This document shows positions 8,664 through 12,337 of a DNA stretch of 32,000 bases, one piece after another. The DNA is taken from the NCBI GenBank assembly GCA_021732745.1, contig JAKFUK010000001.1:42931-74930 (forward strand), read 5' to 3'. The notes under the pieces were generated by a model. That model was not told the origin of the DNA and ran no database searches. It saw only the letters and a list, made by a program, of their open reading frames with translations. Within the stretch, counting starts at the first letter, position 1. Every line of letters starts with the position of its first letter. Origin of the DNA: Nevskia sp. (GTDB lineage Bacteria; Pseudomonadota; Gammaproteobacteria; Nevskiales; Nevskiaceae). Both the position numbers and the translations under genes were made by a program.

Positions 8664-8690
8664 GGCCGCCAGACTCAGGTCTGGCCGGCC
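8664..8690. terminator. GC-rich stem-loop between convergent operons; no U-tract
   Basis: The arm ggccgccagac (8664-8674), loop tcag and arm gtctggccggcc (8679-8690) pair with one bulge. It sits between the crotonase stop (8643) and the stop of the minus-strand ORF (8675-8677). Confidence 0.3.
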
Positions 8691-9262
8691 ATCTGGCGCT
8701 GTCGCTTCATTCCCGAATAGCGGTACATCCCCAGGCCCAGCACGACGACGCCGAGAAGCAGCAGGTAGAACCCGTAGCGCTTCGGCGGGATGCCGACACT
8801 GAACGGAAAGCGCGAAACGTATTGCCCCTGGGCTCCCGCCGTCACCAGGCCCACGAATTTCCCCGGCGTGGTGAAGCTGTATTCGAGCGGCACGCTGCCC
8901 GACACGTAGATCTTCGGCGGCAGGTGCACCACGGTGACCGCATCCAGCTGGCTCTCGTCGCCGGTGTCGCGGATGATCCTCACCTCGATCGGAATTTCCC
9001 GCAGCTCCGGTTCGATCGCGTCCATCACCACGATGGTGTTGCCGACCTTGGGAATGTCCTCGCAGAACTCGCGATTGCCGTTGATCTCCGGCTGGTAGCC
9101 GGTGAAGTGCATGTTGAACGGTCCCAGCCGCAGCTTGCACATGTCGTCGTCGACCGACAGCCCGCCGTGCGCTCCTGCCCCTTGACTCAGCGTGAGTCCC
9201 AGCACGGCGCTACACGTGATGAGCGTGGAGCGCCGCCAGCTGCAACCAGTCCGATTGTGCAT
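8675..9262 (-). CDS. Secreted, C-terminally membrane-anchored hypothetical protein downstream of pmoB. Candidate PmoD/AmoD-like copper accessory protein by position and architecture only.
   Basis: 195 aa. Signal peptide MHNRTGCSWRRSTLITCSAVLGLTLSQGAGA|HGG. Soluble domain of about 130 aa containing DDDMCKLRLGPFNMHFTGYQPE and EFCEDIP. C-terminal TM helix FYLLLLGVVVLGLGMY. It starts 14 nt after the pmoB stop on the same strand. Confidence 0.5.
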   Translation of the reverse strand: MHNRTGCSWRRSTLITCSAVLGLTLSQGAGAHGGLSVDDDMCKLRLGPFNMHFTGYQPEINGNREFCEDIPKVGNTIVVMDAIEPELREIPIEVRIIRDTGDESQLDAVTVVHLPPKIYVSGSVPLEYSFTTPGKFVGLVTAGAQGQYVSRFPFSVGIPPKRYGFYLLLLGVVVLGLGMYRYSGMKRQRQMAGQT

Positions 9263-9276
9263 TTCGCAAGCGCTCT

Positions 9277-10563
9277 TCAGTGAGACTGCGCGAGCTGCAA
9301 CTGCGTGAAGACAGGAACGATCGGGCCGAACACTTCCGCCATGTGCCTCTGACCTTTCGCGTCGAAGAAGAACAGCATGCCGCCGACGCGGCTGTCCACA
9401 TTGGTCAGGAAACTCACCAGCCGCTCGATCTCCCAGGCCGCATCGGTAGCCTCGATGCGCAGCGTCCGCTTCTCGCCGGGGGCGATCGGCGAGCTGTCAC
9501 TGAGCTTGAGACTGGAACCCGCAACCAGGTCTTTCGGGAACGAAGGGTCCACCCCGGCGACGGCAACGTCGAGCGACTTGTCCAGAAAGCGCAGATTGGC
9601 CGTGGTGAATTCCCCCAGCCGCATCGGCGATTCGGACTGGTTGGTGATCTCCACGTCGAGCCGCAGGCTGCGGCCCGGAACATCGTAGGTGGCATCCTTC
9701 ATCTCGACCGCCACCAGGGACGGCACCTGCGGCAGCGGCTTGGTCTTGAACGAACCCGCCTGCAGCGGCACCACGTATTCGTATTTTTGCGTGGTGTATC
9801 GATAACCGCCGATCACCACCACCAGCACCAGCACCAGCAGCCCGGCGGCGACACGATCATCGGTGCGCGTGATCAGCAGGTCCTCGCGTCCCTTCCGGAT
9901 GGCATTCCAGCGCGGCACGATCAGCGGCCGGCGGATCCACCAGACGATCCAGGCCACGGCGAGCAGGGCATAACCTGCCTGCCACCACTGCACGCGCGCG
10001 ACGCCGTAGTGCTGGAGGTCGTCGATCACCTCGCCGGTCATGGTCGTGACCGGCAGCTTGTAGTCCGCCGCGCTGCCGGTGACTTCGACCCAGTGACCGG
10101 GCCCGACGATGGGACCGGCACCGTGGACGTTGAGCACCGGATGGAGGTGCCAGCGGCCGGGAACACGGCCGGCCATCACCATCTTGAAGGGATAGTCGCG
10201 GCCGATTTCCAGTTGACGCACCGACTGCTGCGCCGGCATGTCGTTGATGTACGACTCCACGCGCGTCATCACCGCGCCGGGTGAGGCGTTGGACAGAAAG
10301 GCAAGCTCCGGCTTGGACGCGGCATCAGGCCAGTCCGTGAACAGATGGAATTTGCCCTCCACTGTCACCTTGTCGTTGACGCCGATCTTTTCGCTGGACC
10401 AGGTCACGTCATACCAGTGCACGGTGCGCGTGCGGATGTAAGGCTCGGTGGCACGCTCGCCGTGGGCGGCTGCGGGCAACGAAACCAGCGTGGTCGCAGC
10501 CGTCATTGCAGCGAGCAGGATCGACAGGCCAAAGCGCCGAAGCGACATGCGGTGCAGGCTCAT
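9277..10563 (-). CDS. pmoB: Copper membrane monooxygenase subunit B (PmoB/AmoB family)
   Basis: 428 aa counted from MSLHRMSLRRFGLSILL. The signal peptide ends AAA|HGERATEPYIRTRTVHWYDV. HxH pair in GRWHLHPVLNVHGAGPIVGPG. Two central TM helices (WWQAGYALLAVAWIVWWI and AAGLLVLVLVVVIGGY) and a C-terminal soluble domain. The ATG overlaps the pmoA stop (ATGA at 10563-10560). Confidence 0.9.
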   Translation of the reverse strand: MSLHRMSLRRFGLSILLAAMTAATTLVSLPAAAHGERATEPYIRTRTVHWYDVTWSSEKIGVNDKVTVEGKFHLFTDWPDAASKPELAFLSNASPGAVMTRVESYINDMPAQQSVRQLEIGRDYPFKMVMAGRVPGRWHLHPVLNVHGAGPIVGPGHWVEVTGSAADYKLPVTTMTGEVIDDLQHYGVARVQWWQAGYALLAVAWIVWWIRRPLIVPRWNAIRKGREDLLITRTDDRVAAGLLVLVLVVVIGGYRYTTQKYEYVVPLQAGSFKTKPLPQVPSLVAVEMKDATYDVPGRSLRLDVEITNQSESPMRLGEFTTANLRFLDKSLDVAVAGVDPSFPKDLVAGSSLKLSDSSPIAPGEKRTLRIEATDAAWEIERLVSFLTNVDSRVGGMLFFFDAKGQRHMAEVFGPIVPVFTQLQLAQSH

Positions 10564-11402
10564 GATGCCGCTCCCGGCTGCGCGGCCGCGGCACCGACCG
10601 CTTTCCCCGCAGCCTTCCCCTTGTTGCCGTAGATCAACTTGAAGCGCTCGCCGACCGGGAAAAACCTTGCGTTGCAGGCGAGCACGCCGAGGCCCCAGAA
10701 CATGTAGTACAGGAAGATGCACACGAACGCGGAGAAGAACGCCGAAACCCAGGTCGGCGTGTCGCCGAAGGTGCGCAGGGTGCCGCGTTCGATGATGCGG
10801 ATGTACTCCGGCGTGCCGGCACGCGGGAAGGTGTAGCCGATCAGGTCAGCGACCGAGGTCATGTCGCCCATGTTCATCACCGGCTGAAAATAGCCGGCCA
10901 TGTAGATCCAGTTGGCTGGATAGAACAGCAGGCCGTACAGCACCGCGCCGAACATGCCGGTCACCAGCCAGCTCCGCGACAGCACCAGGATGGCGTCTAG
11001 CACCAGCGCGCCCATCAGGCAGGTTCCAGGCACGACCAGACTCAAGGGAAAATAGGCCAGTCCCTGCCAGCTGTGGTAGCGCACGATCCAGGTGCCGAGC
11101 AGCAGCAGTAGCAGGCTCGCGGTGGCGCCGACCGGAAGACGAAACAGGTTCCAGAAAATGGCCTGGAACGAAGCGGCCATGATGATGGTGGTGATCGGGA
11201 TGATCAGGATCCAGTACTGGCGATCCTTCCAGTCGATGAAGAAATCCCAGTCGCCACCCAGCAGCAGGAAGCTGATGTGCGACACCGACCAGACCAGGAA
11301 GGCGGCTACAACGATGATGAGCACGTCCAGCGTGCGCGACCAGGGGATCGCCCGGGACGACAACTCGGATACTTTCAGAATCGCACGATCATTTTCAGTC
11401 AT
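10560..11402 (-). CDS. pmoA: Copper membrane monooxygenase subunit A (PmoA/AmoA family)
   Basis: 280 aa counted from MTENDRAILKV, with a GAGGAGG Shine-Dalgarno sequence (SD) 7 nt upstream. Hallmarks LLGGDWDFFIDWKDRQYW, WQGLAYFPLSLVVPG and GTPEYIRIIERGTLRTFGDTPTWVSAFFSAF. There is an extra Gly/Ala/Lys-rich C-terminal tail. Confidence 0.9.
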   Translation of the reverse strand: MTENDRAILKVSELSSRAIPWSRTLDVLIIVVAAFLVWSVSHISFLLLGGDWDFFIDWKDRQYWILIIPITTIIMAASFQAIFWNLFRLPVGATASLLLLLLGTWIVRYHSWQGLAYFPLSLVVPGTCLMGALVLDAILVLSRSWLVTGMFGAVLYGLLFYPANWIYMAGYFQPVMNMGDMTSVADLIGYTFPRAGTPEYIRIIERGTLRTFGDTPTWVSAFFSAFVCIFLYYMFWGLGVLACNARFFPVGERFKLIYGNKGKAAGKAVGAAAAQPGAAS

Positions 11403-11542
11403 TTGTCCCCTCCTCGGATTCATCTGCGTCTATCCATGGCGATGCCGACCGGCGCGCGGGACTCGCGACACCGTAATCGGCACCGTCATGGACGACAGCG
11501 TTTTGTTTTTCGGTATCGCGACCCGCGATGCGAAGTGGCGAC

Positions 11543-12337
11543 TCAGGCCGGATTTGCGTTGTCTGCCGTACCGCCGACTTCCTTGAACAGCTCCGCCATG
11601 CGGCCGATCACCTGGATGAACAGGCCACCCAGGGCGAGACCGGTCCAGCCCAGGATCGGAAAGCCCCAGTGCAGGGGATGGCTGAAGATTTCCTCGGTCA
11701 TCCAGAACGCGTGACCCCACTCGTTGAAGCCGAGGTTGGGCAGAATCAGACCTGGGCCGAGCACCGCCATGATCAGCGGCAGCGAGTAGCCACGAGCGAA
11801 CGCCGGGATGCGCGTGGTGGCATACAGCAGGCTGCTCACGCCGAACACGATGTACATCGGCACGCAGGCGTAGAACACCACGATGTGACTGGGTGTGAGC
11901 GCGGTATCGCGGATCACCGTCTGGTGCCAGGTGGCATCACCTTCGCCAAAGAAGCTGGCGATCCACAGGAACGAAAACGTGTACATCATGAACCAGGCGA
12001 TGAGGCCGAAATACCGCTTCAGCTCCGTCTCGCCGCTCATGCTGTCCATGTCGCGGTCGCGGGTGAACCACAGGTACATCCAGACGCACAGGCCGCTGCC
12101 GAAGATCAGCGGCACCTCGACCTTGAACAGTGTCATCCAGTACGTTGCAAATTCCGGCGACGTGGCGTCGAGTCCGTACTCGAACGAAAACGCACCCTGG
12201 TAAAGGCGAAGACCGGCGTATACCGCCAGCAACAGGCCCCAGCCAATGGCAACTGGCCCGAGGCTGAACATCTTGCGCTCCTTGGGAACACTGGAAGCCC
12301 GTGCGGACGGGATCGACGACGCCACTTGGATCGACAT
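11543..12337 (-). CDS. pmoC: Copper membrane monooxygenase subunit C (PmoC/AmoC family)
   Basis: 264 aa counted from [10 protein letters not shown], with an AGGAGA SD 7 nt upstream. Hallmarks [32 protein letters not shown] and [27 protein letters not shown]. Confidence 0.9.
   Translation of the reverse strand: [264 protein letters not shown]

Follow-up and report, generated by a model that had tools for sequence, protein, structure and literature searches.

A copper membrane monooxygenase (CuMMO) operon in a gammaproteobacterium raises the question of whether the enzyme oxidizes methane, ammonia, or another small molecule. The operon is located in a 32-kb stretch of DNA from Nevskia sp. (the window) and consists of four genes, xmoCABD, at 8675–12337 on the minus strand (Table 1). 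The ORF calls place xmoC, xmoA, and xmoB consecutively in C-A-B order, as the original prediction had described, and the motifs it quoted are all found where it placed them. However, it counted three genes and overlooked the fourth (8675–9262), which lies inside the interval it had assigned to the operon. Separate gene calls on a near-identical metagenomic contig (L025, 99–100% identical) gave identical lengths, including 264 aa for XmoC, and a 280-aa protein, P0001, is 99% identical to XmoA. The xmoC start is the ATG at 12337, which features an AGGAGA ribosome-binding site, the xmoA start is the ATG at 11402 with a GAGGAGG ribosome-binding site, and the xmoB ATG overlaps the xmoA stop codon (ATGA).

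Table 1. Features of the xmoCABD locus, in window coordinates
Feature	Position	Strand	Description
xmoC	11543..12337	-	264 aa, membrane subunit; Pfam AmoC 9.7e-87
xmoA	10560..11402	-	280 aa, membrane subunit; Pfam AMO 1.8e-77
xmoB	9277..10563	-	428 aa; Pfam Monooxygenase_B 6.3e-142
pmoD/amoD-like gene	8675..9262	-	195 aa; phmmer to PmoD PDB 6CPD, E 5e-21
xmoC-tetR intergenic control region	12338..12729	-	392 bp; upstream regions of 7 loci aligned
TetR-family regulator gene	12730..13350	+	~206 aa from conserved ATG 12730; Pfam TetR_N 2e-07

The host, as judged by sequence identity, is a Nevskiaceae gammaproteobacterium near Panacagrimonas. XmoB is 94% identical to its counterpart in a Panacagrimonas MAG and 89%, 87%, and 84% identical to those in Nevskiaceae, Polycyclovorans, and Nevskia MAGs, respectively, and the flanking genes are 96–98% identical to those of the same MAGs. 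The GC3 of the operon equals that of the flanking genes. The dN/dS ratio is 0.10–0.20 for xmoCAB across four Nevskiaceae lineages and 0.16–0.38 for pmoD, and values of 0.1–0.2 indicate purifying selection on the operon genes. An inactive evolutionary remnant might be suspected because the Nevskiaceae operon is without adjacent accessory genes (alcohol dehydrogenase, CopCD). This is extremely improbable given the dN/dS values, the intact reading frames with all metal ligands kept, the good ribosome-binding sites and translational coupling, and the in situ transcripts known for a close relative. That relative is Nevskia MAG nzgw585 (locus L004), whose operon is 84–90% identical to that of the window and whose xmoA transcripts were detected in groundwater (PMC9562985).

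Copper sites of the core subunits and the PmoD-like protein

Pfam scores for XmoC, XmoA, and XmoB are far above the gathering scores, and alignments to solved structures show that the predicted proteins match a CuMMO in subunit composition and domain organization. XmoB features a signal peptide that is cleaved between AAA and HGE, two cupredoxin domains, and two TM helices, and it aligns end to end with PmoB (3RGB, 1.5e-119). The CuB site, a histidine brace, consists of XmoB His34, His139, and His141, which align with H33, H137, and H139 of M. capsulatus PmoB, and the counterparts of M. capsulatus H48 and H72 are also kept. XmoC was aligned with AmoC (9PXF) and PmoC (3RFR/4PHZ). The CuC site is Asp134/His138/His151, the counterparts of D129, H133, and H146 in Methylocystis PmoC, and the CuD site is the Asn/His/His set Asn205/His209/His223. 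The CuD loop carries an additional, clade-specific histidine, His220. XmoA matches AmoA and PmoA structures in the PDB (1e-58 to 3e-64) and has a C-terminal extension about as long as the one in betaproteobacterial AmoA. The original prediction had matched these residues to the CuB ligands of PmoB and the CuC/CuD ligands of PmoC; in the structure-based alignment, every ligand aligns with the solved pMMO and AMO structures. From what is known of the family, XmoC, XmoA, and XmoB would form a trimeric copper enzyme, with the CuC/CuD region of XmoC as the site of O2-dependent hydroxylation.

The fourth gene has zero matches among Pfam and NCBIfam models. Its predicted product features a signal peptide, whose removal would leave His-Gly-Gly at the mature N-terminus, as well as a periplasmic cupredoxin-like domain and a membrane anchor at the C-terminus. 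The C-x8-M-H...C motif comprises Cys42, Met51, His52, and Cys67, and comparison with known proteins shows that the predicted product is a PmoD of the AmoD type. The gene follows xmoB in every related locus whose sequence reaches beyond xmoB, including Bradyrhizobium, Solimonas, and Burkholderiaceae, and Fisher et al. 2018 (PMC6189053) tie the Cx8MHxnC motif to pmo/amo operons. The window protein shares with the PmoD/AmoD proteins of that study, and with 6CPD, the signal peptide, the cupredoxin-like domain, two invariant cysteines, the C-terminal membrane anchor, and a gene position right after the B subunit gene. It differs from 6CPD-type PmoD in that it has the Cx8MH motif of the AmoD class, whereas the CuA site was demonstrated for the Cx7MxH class; in the available portion of PMC6189053, Cx8MH homologues are absent from the spectroscopically examined set. 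By analogy with the family, PmoD would be anchored in the membrane, bind copper in the periplasm, and support the function of the enzyme.

Control region and the divergent regulator

The alignment of seven upstream regions revealed an invariant TTGACA at 12581–12586, within the palindrome TTGACA-N4-TATCAA at 12571–12586, which is perfect in one locus, L010 (TTGACAacatTGTCAA). The TTGACA may be a −35 element that is overlapped by a candidate TetR operator, while a sigma-70 consensus scan of the upstream region returned zero sites. A short GC hairpin at 12532–12545, which features one compensatory pair only, is followed by a ~200-nt 5′ leader. In all Nevskiaceae loci with sequence upstream of xmoC, the tetR gene lies there in divergent orientation. 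It is missing from the Bradyrhizobium, Solimonas, and Burkholderiaceae loci, where regulators of the AraC or sigma-54 type are found. From its gene position, the TetR-family protein is the presumed repressor of xmoCABD, and it would control the operon via the conserved palindrome.

Placement of the enzyme and its probable substrate

The subunits are 40–52% identical to pMMO, AMO, and pXMO references and 34–36% identical to actinobacterial HMO. XmoA is the standard phylogenetic marker. The NJ tree groups the operon with the CuMMOs of Solimonas aquatica, Bradyrhizobium, Burkholderiaceae, Vitreoscilla, and a Nevskia MAG with a bootstrap of 99/100, and this group contains no pMMO, AMO, pXMO, or HMO reference. 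Burkholderiales MAG sequences also fall inside the clade (XmoA ~70% identity), and its sister is a second Burkholderiales/Methylibium clade. When 1.84 billion proteins are clustered at 50%, the XmoC sequences of the clade collapse to one representative, and the next clusters are 50–51% identical. The tree shows a distinct, well-supported clade for the predicted enzyme, separate from pMMO, AMO, pXMO, and actinobacterial HMO. The lineage is already on record but biochemically uncharacterized, and the window operon is an additional member; the Solimonas aquatica, Bradyrhizobium, and Nevskia MAG CuMMOs were described as being of unknown function (PMC6215863, PMC8630023, PMC9562985). The original prediction of a poorly characterized, hydrocarbon-oxidizing CuMMO lineage thus holds for the uncharacterized lineage, and a position outside the pMMO and AMO references agrees with it; "hydrocarbon-oxidizing" is suggested by the neighborhoods of other clade members and not by the window.

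Automatic annotation would label the operon an ammonia monooxygenase since it exceeds the cut-offs of two NCBIfam models, AmoB_BACT (545 bits, cut-off 336) and AmoC_BACT (327 bits, cut-off 319). A role in heterotrophic nitrification or ammonia co-oxidation would also fit the best PDB matches of XmoA and XmoC, which are AmoA and AmoC structures, and the AmoD-type motif of PmoD. However, neither model is specific for a substrate, as both also give the name "bacterial AMO" to the pxmABC genes on a plasmid from a methanotroph. XmoA shares just 40% identity with N. europaea AmoA and branches outside AMO, hao and cycAB are absent from the window and 27 related loci, and relatives have genes for alcohol and aldehyde dehydrogenases beside the operon; an ammonia monooxygenase is therefore very unlikely. 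It is equally unlikely that the enzyme is the particulate methane monooxygenase of a facultative methanotroph. Every pMMO copper ligand is kept, including the M. capsulatus-type H48/H72 pair, and the operon contains a PmoD gene, but the subunits are only 44–46% identical to those of pMMO and the clade stands apart from it. Methanol dehydrogenase, H4MPT, RuMP, and serine-cycle genes occur in no locus (the window and related loci), and the PQQ enzymes of relatives have a cytochrome c domain, which is typical of quinohemoprotein alcohol dehydrogenases. The Nevskiales are known as hydrocarbon degraders and not as methanotrophs, and the related betaproteobacterial operons reportedly do not support methane assimilation (Rochman et al. 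2020); both count against methane.

The window encodes a P450 that is CYP153A-like (7ANT, 1e-127; CYP153A7, 6.5e-108), present only as a C-terminal fragment at the window edge, ~19 kb from the operon, as well as gcdH (3D6B, 1.8e-191), a WS/DGAT, and many acyl-CoA enzymes. These neighbors were all named correctly in the original prediction, which had also reported no C1 assimilation or nitrification genes; genes for C1 assimilation and hydroxylamine oxidation are absent from the 32-kb window and from 27 related loci. The acyl-CoA genes to the right of the operon form a convergent cluster resembling C5-dicarboxylate or itaconate degradation, and its link to the monooxygenase is putative. Genes for alcohol dehydrogenase, aldehyde dehydrogenase, a porin, and CopCD are all absent from the window and from the closest Nevskiaceae loci, so the substrate assignment is borrowed from relatives at only 60–70% identity. 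In Bradyrhizobium, AraC, aldehyde dehydrogenase, and PQQ alcohol dehydrogenase (with a cytochrome c domain) genes are followed by xmoCABD and CopCD. Solimonas features the orthologous PQQ enzyme (68% identity), a Zn-dependent alcohol dehydrogenase, an esterase-like hydrolase, xmoCABD, CopCD, and a sigma-54 activator. Burkholderiaceae have a MimR-like regulator, xmoCABD, aldehyde dehydrogenase, acyl-CoA ligase, and acetyl-CoA hydrolase/transferase; the ligase is 55% identical to the one that ends the convergent cluster of the window. In Vitreoscilla, a TodX/FadL porin lies immediately upstream. Methanol, hydroxylamine, and epoxide genes are absent beside the operon in other clade members, and these neighborhoods together favor a small hydrocarbon as the substrate and an alcohol as the product.

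It is thus fairly likely that xmoCABD is functional and encodes a CuMMO for a small hydrophobic organic substrate, most likely a short-chain alkane. As suggested by the neighbors in other clade members, the alcohol product would pass through alcohol dehydrogenase and aldehyde dehydrogenase to acyl-CoA formation. A substrate class other than C2–C4 n-alkanes is a less likely alternative; it could comprise alkenes, small ketones (for example, acetone), or branched and alicyclic hydrocarbons, including methylcycloalkanes and isoprenoid-derived compounds. The operon-associated acyl-CoA ligase, found in two orders, has cyclohexanecarboxylate-CoA ligase (TIGR03208) as its best model, with 650 bits for the window ligase, which the end of the window cuts short. 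The L001 orthologue, which is full-length, scores 686 bits, below the cut-off of 792 bits, and two steps of the cyclohexanecarboxylate pathway, BadH/BadI, are missing from the neighboring cluster. The nearby gcdH, Atu-type, and CYP153 genes suggest a host specialized in branched or alicyclic substrates, and regulators of the MimR/sigma-54 type, as in Burkholderiaceae and Vitreoscilla, control acetone and propane monooxygenases. An acetone-oxidizing CuMMO homologue is on record (PMC8630023) and a Porticoccaceae CuMMO was proposed for methylcycloalkanes (bioRxiv 10.1101/2022.11.07.515388), but the latter belongs to a different, deeper lineage. The extra histidine in the CuD loop is unique to the clade, and this loop has been suggested to tune specificity; the pockets of known CuMMOs are small. 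CoM transferase, glutathione transferase, and epoxide hydrolase lie beside the xmo operon in no clade locus examined.

Comparison with known systems

The CuMMOs of Solimonas aquatica DSM 25927, Bradyrhizobium, and Nevskia nzgw585 (Khadka et al. 2018, Awala et al. 2021, Mosley et al. 2022) form one XmoA clade with the window enzyme. XmoA identity is 62–65% for Bradyrhizobium and Solimonas and 87% for Nevskia nzgw585, and all share the xmoC-A-B-pmoD order, the XmoC FFGEGD and SHPLH signatures, and the PmoD Cx8MH motif. Unlike other clade members, the Nevskiaceae subgroup of the window has the TetR regulator and is without adjacent PQQ alcohol dehydrogenase, aldehyde dehydrogenase, CopCD, and a conserved 274–291-aa unknown protein. 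Rochman et al. 2020 reportedly described xmoCABD operons in alkane-utilizing Betaproteobacteria (Rhodoferax, Polaromonas). These share the four-gene layout in non-methanotrophic, non-nitrifying Proteobacteria, whereas the window host belongs to the order Nevskiales, and the evidence for ethane and propane is said to come from Rhodoferax/Polaromonas-type bacteria and not from the clade of the window.

The pMMOs of M. capsulatus Bath and Methylocystis (3RGB, 7S4H, 3RFR) have the same three subunits, CuB/CuC/CuD ligands, and an in-operon PmoD. The window operon differs in its 44–46% identity, its position outside the pMMO branch, the absence of a C1 metabolism context, and a CuD loop that reads SHPLH (His) instead of VAPLH (Ala). 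Bacterial AMO (N. europaea 9CL6, N. briensis 9PXF) is similar in the 52% identity of XmoC to AmoC, the length of the XmoA C-terminal extension, and the AmoD-type PmoD motif, but the window operon belongs to a separate clade, XmoA identity is just 40%, and hao/cycAB are not nearby. The hydrocarbon/butane monooxygenase (HMO) operon hmoCAB of Mycolicibacterium chubuense NBB4 (plasmid pMYCCH.01), which has an AMP-binding ligase and a GAF-domain regulator downstream, encodes subunits that are only 34–36% identical and a ligase that is only 27% identical to that of the window. The window operon has PmoD, whereas actinobacterial genomes are without PmoD (PMC6189053). Both operons encode a CuMMO in a non-methanotroph, and HMO serves C2–C4 alkanes.

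The xmoCABD operon and its copper ligands

CuMMOs catalyze the first step in the oxidation of methane, ammonia, and short-chain alkanes. The window contains four consecutive minus-strand ORFs at 8675-12433 by longest-ORF limits. The real xmoC, xmoA, and xmoB genes are shorter than these ORFs, and the subunit lengths in the table were also obtained by independent gene calls on L025, a metagenome contig that is 99-100% identical. Pfam profiles match all three subunits, AmoC with 290.8 bits (9.7e-87), AMO with 260.9 bits (1.8e-77), and Monooxygenase_B with 473.7 bits (6.3e-142), where the cut-offs are 22-28 bits. 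The NCBIfam methane/ammonia monooxygenase models also match XmoC, XmoA, and XmoB. The C, A, and B subunits are encoded together by contiguous genes that are translationally coupled. Phmmer searches against solved structures gave nearly end-to-end matches of XmoB to M. capsulatus PmoB (1.5e-119), XmoC to N. briensis AmoC (2e-69), and XmoA to N. europaea AmoA (2.6e-64).

Residue-by-residue alignment to 3RGB, 9PXF, 3RFR, and 4PHZ determined that the ligands of all three copper sites, CuB of subunit B and CuC and CuD of subunit C, are present. The CuB ligands H33, H137, and H139 of PmoB correspond to His34, His139, and His141 of XmoB, which also retains residues equivalent to H48 and H72 of M. capsulatus. 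The CuC ligands D129, H133, and H146 of Methylocystis PmoC correspond to Asp134, His138, and His151 of XmoC, and the CuD ligands are Asn205, His209, and His223. The original prediction described a three-gene pmoCAB-type operon. Its C-A-B genes on the minus strand were confirmed by Pfam, NCBIfam, and the structure alignments, the motifs it quoted were all found in place, and the copper ligands it named align with the solved pMMO and AMO structures; the gene count is four instead of three.

The fourth gene encodes a protein with no match among Pfam or NCBIfam models that matches the PmoD crystal structure 6CPD (E 5e-21). It features the signal peptide, two cysteines, motif class, and C-terminal TM helix of the PmoD/AmoD family; the cysteines are invariant and located in a periplasmic domain, and the C-terminus is hydrophobic. 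The motif is C-x8-M-H...C, and 13 clade sequences share Cys42, Cys67, and Cx8MH. The pmoD-like gene lies downstream of xmoB in every related locus whose sequence continues beyond that gene, with two genes in between in Vitreoscilla, and the operon is therefore designated xmoCABD. According to Fisher et al. (PMC6189053), the Cx8MH class makes up 13.4% of PmoDs, is mostly tied to pmo/amo operons, and is annotated amoD in ammonia oxidizers. Fisher et al. also confine CuA formation to the Cx7MxH class, to which the Cx8MH protein of the window does not belong, and they describe the CuMMO-bearing genomes without PmoD as those of actinobacterial alkane oxidizers, so that the window operon is distinct from the HMO/BMO type. 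Signal peptide cleavage is predicted at A-x-A|HGG, which would leave an N-terminal histidine that is conserved clade-wide and recalls the histidine braces found in PmoB and CopC.

Features of the window and of related loci (window coordinates unless a locus is named)
Feature	Position	Strand	Description
xmoC	11543-12337, start ATG 12337	minus	264 aa; AGGAGA ribosome-binding site
xmoA	10560-11402, start ATG 11402	minus	280 aa; GAGGAGG ribosome-binding site
xmoB	9277-10563, start ATG 10563	minus	428 aa; ATGA overlap with xmoA stop
pmoD-like gene	8675-9262	minus	195 aa
Predicted PmoD cleavage site	9161-9175, residues 30-34	minus	A-x-A|HGG
XmoC CuD loop	11660-11725, residues 205-226	minus	extra His220, Ala in pMMO/AMO
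TTGACA palindrome and hairpin	12532-12586		TTGACA-N4-TATCAA in the window; perfect palindrome in related locus L010
AliA-like acyl-CoA ligase	36-1523, cut by window start	plus	best model cyclohexanecarboxylate-CoA ligase
Convergent cluster	1560-8643	plus	two family III CoA-transferases, small hotdog hydratase, acyl-CoA dehydrogenase, MmgE/PrpD, CitE/Ccl- or RipC-like lyase, crotonase
RipB/Ich-like hydratase	14640-15149
WS/DGAT	16598-18076		upstream of HMG-CoA-synthase-like fusion gene
HMG-CoA-synthase-like gene and thiolases	18260-22143	plus	fusion with DUF35/ChsH2 OB-fold, then two SCP-x-type thiolase-like genes
Atu/Liu-like set	24256-30799	plus	AtuA, biotin carboxylase, biotin-carrier domain protein, carboxyltransferase, acyl-CoA dehydrogenase
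CYP153A-type alkane hydroxylase	31278-32000, cut by window edge	minus	C-terminal 234 aa; 7ANT 1e-127
ORF without family match	4126-5604	minus	492 aa
ORF without family match	22089-23390	minus	433 aa
Conserved 274-291-aa protein	L008/L009 ~12020; L011 ~16540; L014 ~3400-3500; L019 11205-12080; L021 6986-7810		related loci

Position in the CuMMO family

A neighbor-joining tree of XmoA places the window protein in a clade with Solimonas, Bradyrhizobium, Vitreoscilla, and Burkholderiaceae (99/100 bootstrap), with all five references outside, and the sister group is a second unnamed Burkholderiales/Methylibium clade (98/100). XmoA groups with the xmoCABD operons of Solimonas, Bradyrhizobium, Nevskia, and Burkholderiales, apart from the characterized CuMMOs. 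When XmoC was searched against a set of one representative per 50%-identity cluster, covering ~15 billion proteins, only 249 matches had an E-value of 0.001 or less. A single cluster representative, 84% identical to XmoC, stands for the whole clade, and identity drops to 50-51% in the next clusters.

Membership in the known types was weighed in turn. The subunits do not cluster within pMMO clades: M. capsulatus PmoA lies outside the 99/100 clade and the identities are 44-46% (XmoC 44%, XmoB 45%, XmoA 46%). Nor do they cluster within the AMO clades of AOB or comammox: AmoA of N. europaea and N. briensis lies outside the clade and XmoA is 40% identical to AMO; the identity for XmoC is 52%. The operon is not closely related to the actinobacterial HMO/BMO type: HmoCAB of M. 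chubuense NBB4 is 34-36% identical (XmoC 36%, XmoA 35%, XmoB 34%) and PmoD is present in the window operon. The identities to pXMO are 49% for XmoC, 50% for XmoA, and 47% for XmoB. Two NCBIfam "equivalog" models, AmoB_BACT and AmoC_BACT, do exceed their cut-offs at 9277-12337, but PGAP also uses the name "bacterial ammonia monooxygenase" for pxmABC on a Methylomagnum plasmid (L024); because the genes of a methanotroph are named alike, these models are no sign of ammonia oxidation.

The clade is distinguished by its CuC and CuD sequences. All 13 clade XmoC proteins examined feature FFGEGDA(T/V/S)WH at CuC, whereas pMMO and AMO have FFTEQD, and all 13 feature TEE(I/T)FSHPLH at CuD, where pMMO and AMO have MEELF(S/V)APLH. 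The extra histidine of SHPLH, His220 of XmoC, is invariant in the 13 members, is located three residues before the CuD histidine, and corresponds to Ala242 of M. capsulatus PmoC. In a set of ~40 full-length XmoC cluster representatives, this histidine is confined to that of the clade and one distant sequence. According to a recent review, the CuD loop stands out for its poor conservation and may determine specificity.

The closest XmoB proteins in a genome-collection scan are from MAGs of Panacagrimonas (94%), Nevskiaceae (89%), Polycyclovorans (87%), and Nevskia nzgw585 (84%), followed by Bradyrhizobium at 62-63%. The flanking proteins are 96-98% identical to those of the Panacagrimonas and Polycyclovorans MAGs, and together these identities assign the window to a Nevskiaceae gammaproteobacterium. 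The identity of XmoA homologs ranges from 99% and 91% (a TARA ocean MAG) to ~70% in a Burkholderiaceae MAG, 65% in Solimonas aquatica, and 62% in Bradyrhizobium. In comparisons with four Nevskiaceae relatives, xmoCAB has dN/dS values of 0.10-0.20 and pmoD has values of 0.16-0.38, and xmoCABD is under purifying selection. The dS and GC3 of the operon resemble those of flanking housekeeping-type genes, and recent horizontal acquisition is thus unsupported.

Regulation, gene neighborhoods, and substrate

In the window and in Nevskiaceae relatives, the gene of a TetR regulator is located upstream of xmoC and is transcribed divergently from it. Cross-locus alignment of the 392 bp xmoC-tetR spacer revealed an invariant TTGACA inside the palindrome TTGACA-N4-T(A/G)TCAA, and judging from this conservation TTGACA is a candidate -35 element that a TetR operator would overlap, followed by a putative leader of ~200 nt. 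The palindrome is followed by a GC hairpin, CCCCG-TTTA-CGGGG, with one compensatory change. This conserved hairpin is no more than a candidate 5' leader structure, since there is only one compensatory pair and the covariation term is positive. A sigma-70 consensus scan gave no full promoter site, a search for inverted repeats between xmoC and tetR gave only trivial GC-rich palindromes, and Rfam gave no RNA family in the window; terminator-like matches fell within coding sequence or had the wrong orientation, and they were not convincingly above shuffled expectation.

The gene gcdH lies beyond the TetR gene in the window and in Nevskiaceae relatives. At three related loci (L001, L003, and L016) a ~5-kb efflux module of MarR, outer-membrane factor, membrane-fusion protein, and MFS genes is located between the two; it is missing from the window, where the TetR gene adjoins gcdH at 13350-13404. 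The original prediction placed the operon in an alkane/acyl-CoA context that lacks C1 assimilation and nitrification genes. The acyl-CoA genes are present, but largely as a separate, convergently transcribed cluster on the other side of the operon, which includes the AliA-like ligase and resembles itaconate or C5-dicarboxylate degradation; all itaconate-pathway and specific models scored below their cut-offs on this cluster. The AliA-like ligase scores 650 bits in the window and 686 bits in the full-length ortholog, both below the model cut-off of 792, and cyclohexanecarboxylate-CoA ligase was rejected as a firm identity. A Burkholderiaceae MAG has an ortholog with 55% full-length identity (L019, 13766-15412), in a same-strand gene array downstream of xmoCABD. 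This is the one hint that the convergent cluster may be connected to the operon. As the downstream pathway of the monooxygenase the cluster was not adopted, since synteny extends only within Nevskiaceae and the itaconate models are sub-cut-off. The CYP153A-type gene indicates that the host has a second, medium-chain alkane hydroxylase nearby, and the Atu/Liu-like set suggests branched-chain or acyclic terpene catabolism. The two ORFs without family matches are antisense to better-supported genes and are probably artefacts of a high-GC genome.

The neighbors in more distant clade members are more informative. The Bradyrhizobium locus consists of AraC, an aldehyde dehydrogenase, a quinohaemoprotein PQQ-ADH, xmoCABD, and CopC-CopD. 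The Solimonas locus features a PQQ-ADH that is orthologous to that of Bradyrhizobium (68% identical), a Zn-ADH, an esterase-like hydrolase, xmoCABD, CopCD, a sigma-54 activator, and a GMC oxidoreductase. The Burkholderiaceae MAG has a MimR-like regulator, xmoCABD, an aldehyde dehydrogenase, an acyl-CoA ligase, and an acetyl-CoA hydrolase/transferase, and in Vitreoscilla a TodX/FadL hydrocarbon porin is immediately upstream of the operon. Additionally, a conserved 274-291-aa protein with a faint Peptidase_S9 match (41-56% identical) lies beside xmoCABD in Bradyrhizobium, Solimonas, Burkholderiaceae, and Vitreoscilla, and is absent from the Nevskiaceae loci and the window. Genes for hydroxylamine, methanol, or epoxide processing do not adjoin the operon at any locus examined. 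Neither hao/cycAB nor methanol oxidation and C1 assimilation modules were found in the related loci or in the 32-kb window, as had been predicted for the latter.

Taken together, these neighborhoods favor an enzyme that hydroxylates a small hydrophobic molecule, yielding an alcohol that would then be oxidized to an acid and activated with CoA. The best guess for the substrate is a short-chain alkane, and serious candidates also include ketones and larger or alicyclic hydrocarbons. Work by Rochman et al. from 2020 reportedly tied related betaproteobacterial xmoCABD operons of three lineages to ethane and propane. A bolder reading starts from the extra CuD-loop histidine, which may remodel the copper environment of the active site. 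The clade would then be a functionally new CuMMO type acting on a substrate class not yet assigned to CuMMOs, such as alicyclic or branched C5-C8 hydrocarbons, with the co-occurring AliA-like ligase activating the acids so formed, which would be degraded via the neighboring CoA-dependent cluster and gcdH. This reading is considered quite improbable, and a short-chain alkane is preferred.

Significance and comparison with known CuMMOs

Sequence surveys routinely count amoA/pmoA-like genes as nitrification or methanotrophy, and automatic annotation would label the window operon an ammonia monooxygenase, which is a pitfall for nitrification surveys. The clade is widespread, occurring in soil Bradyrhizobium, in groundwater and marine Nevskiales, and in Burkholderiales. 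Settling its function would mend annotations and could widen the CuMMO substrate range. Experiments are feasible because there are cultured members, among them Solimonas aquatica DSM 25927, Bradyrhizobium diazoefficiens SZCCT0138, and B. manausense SZCCT0118, and the diagnostic active-site signature, the conserved PmoD partner, and the neighborhood evidence for alcohol-forming hydrocarbon oxidation are of further value.

The operons of Solimonas aquatica and Bradyrhizobium were listed as CuMMOs of unknown function by Khadka et al. 2018 (PMC6215863), which was restated for the Solimonas CuMMO by Awala et al. 2021 (PMC8630023). The literature also includes Mosley et al. 2022 (PMC9562985), where xmoA transcripts of Nevskia MAG nzgw585 were detected in groundwater, a 2026 data-mining paper that recorded Nevskiales MAGs carrying the operon, and a 2025 paper according to which betaproteobacterial xmoA clades are still without substrate evidence. 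The listings of Khadka et al. and Awala et al., together with the separate 99/100 clade, support the earlier assignment to a poorly characterized CuMMO lineage outside pMMO and AMO, and tight clustering inside the pMMO or AMO clades was not found in the XmoA tree or the XmoC cluster search. A plasmid search found the clade on no catalogued plasmid and returned only the Methylomagnum pxm operon and actinobacterial hmo, which are distant CuMMOs relative to the window clade. The window operon is a further member of an already documented CuMMO clade and not a new kind of system.
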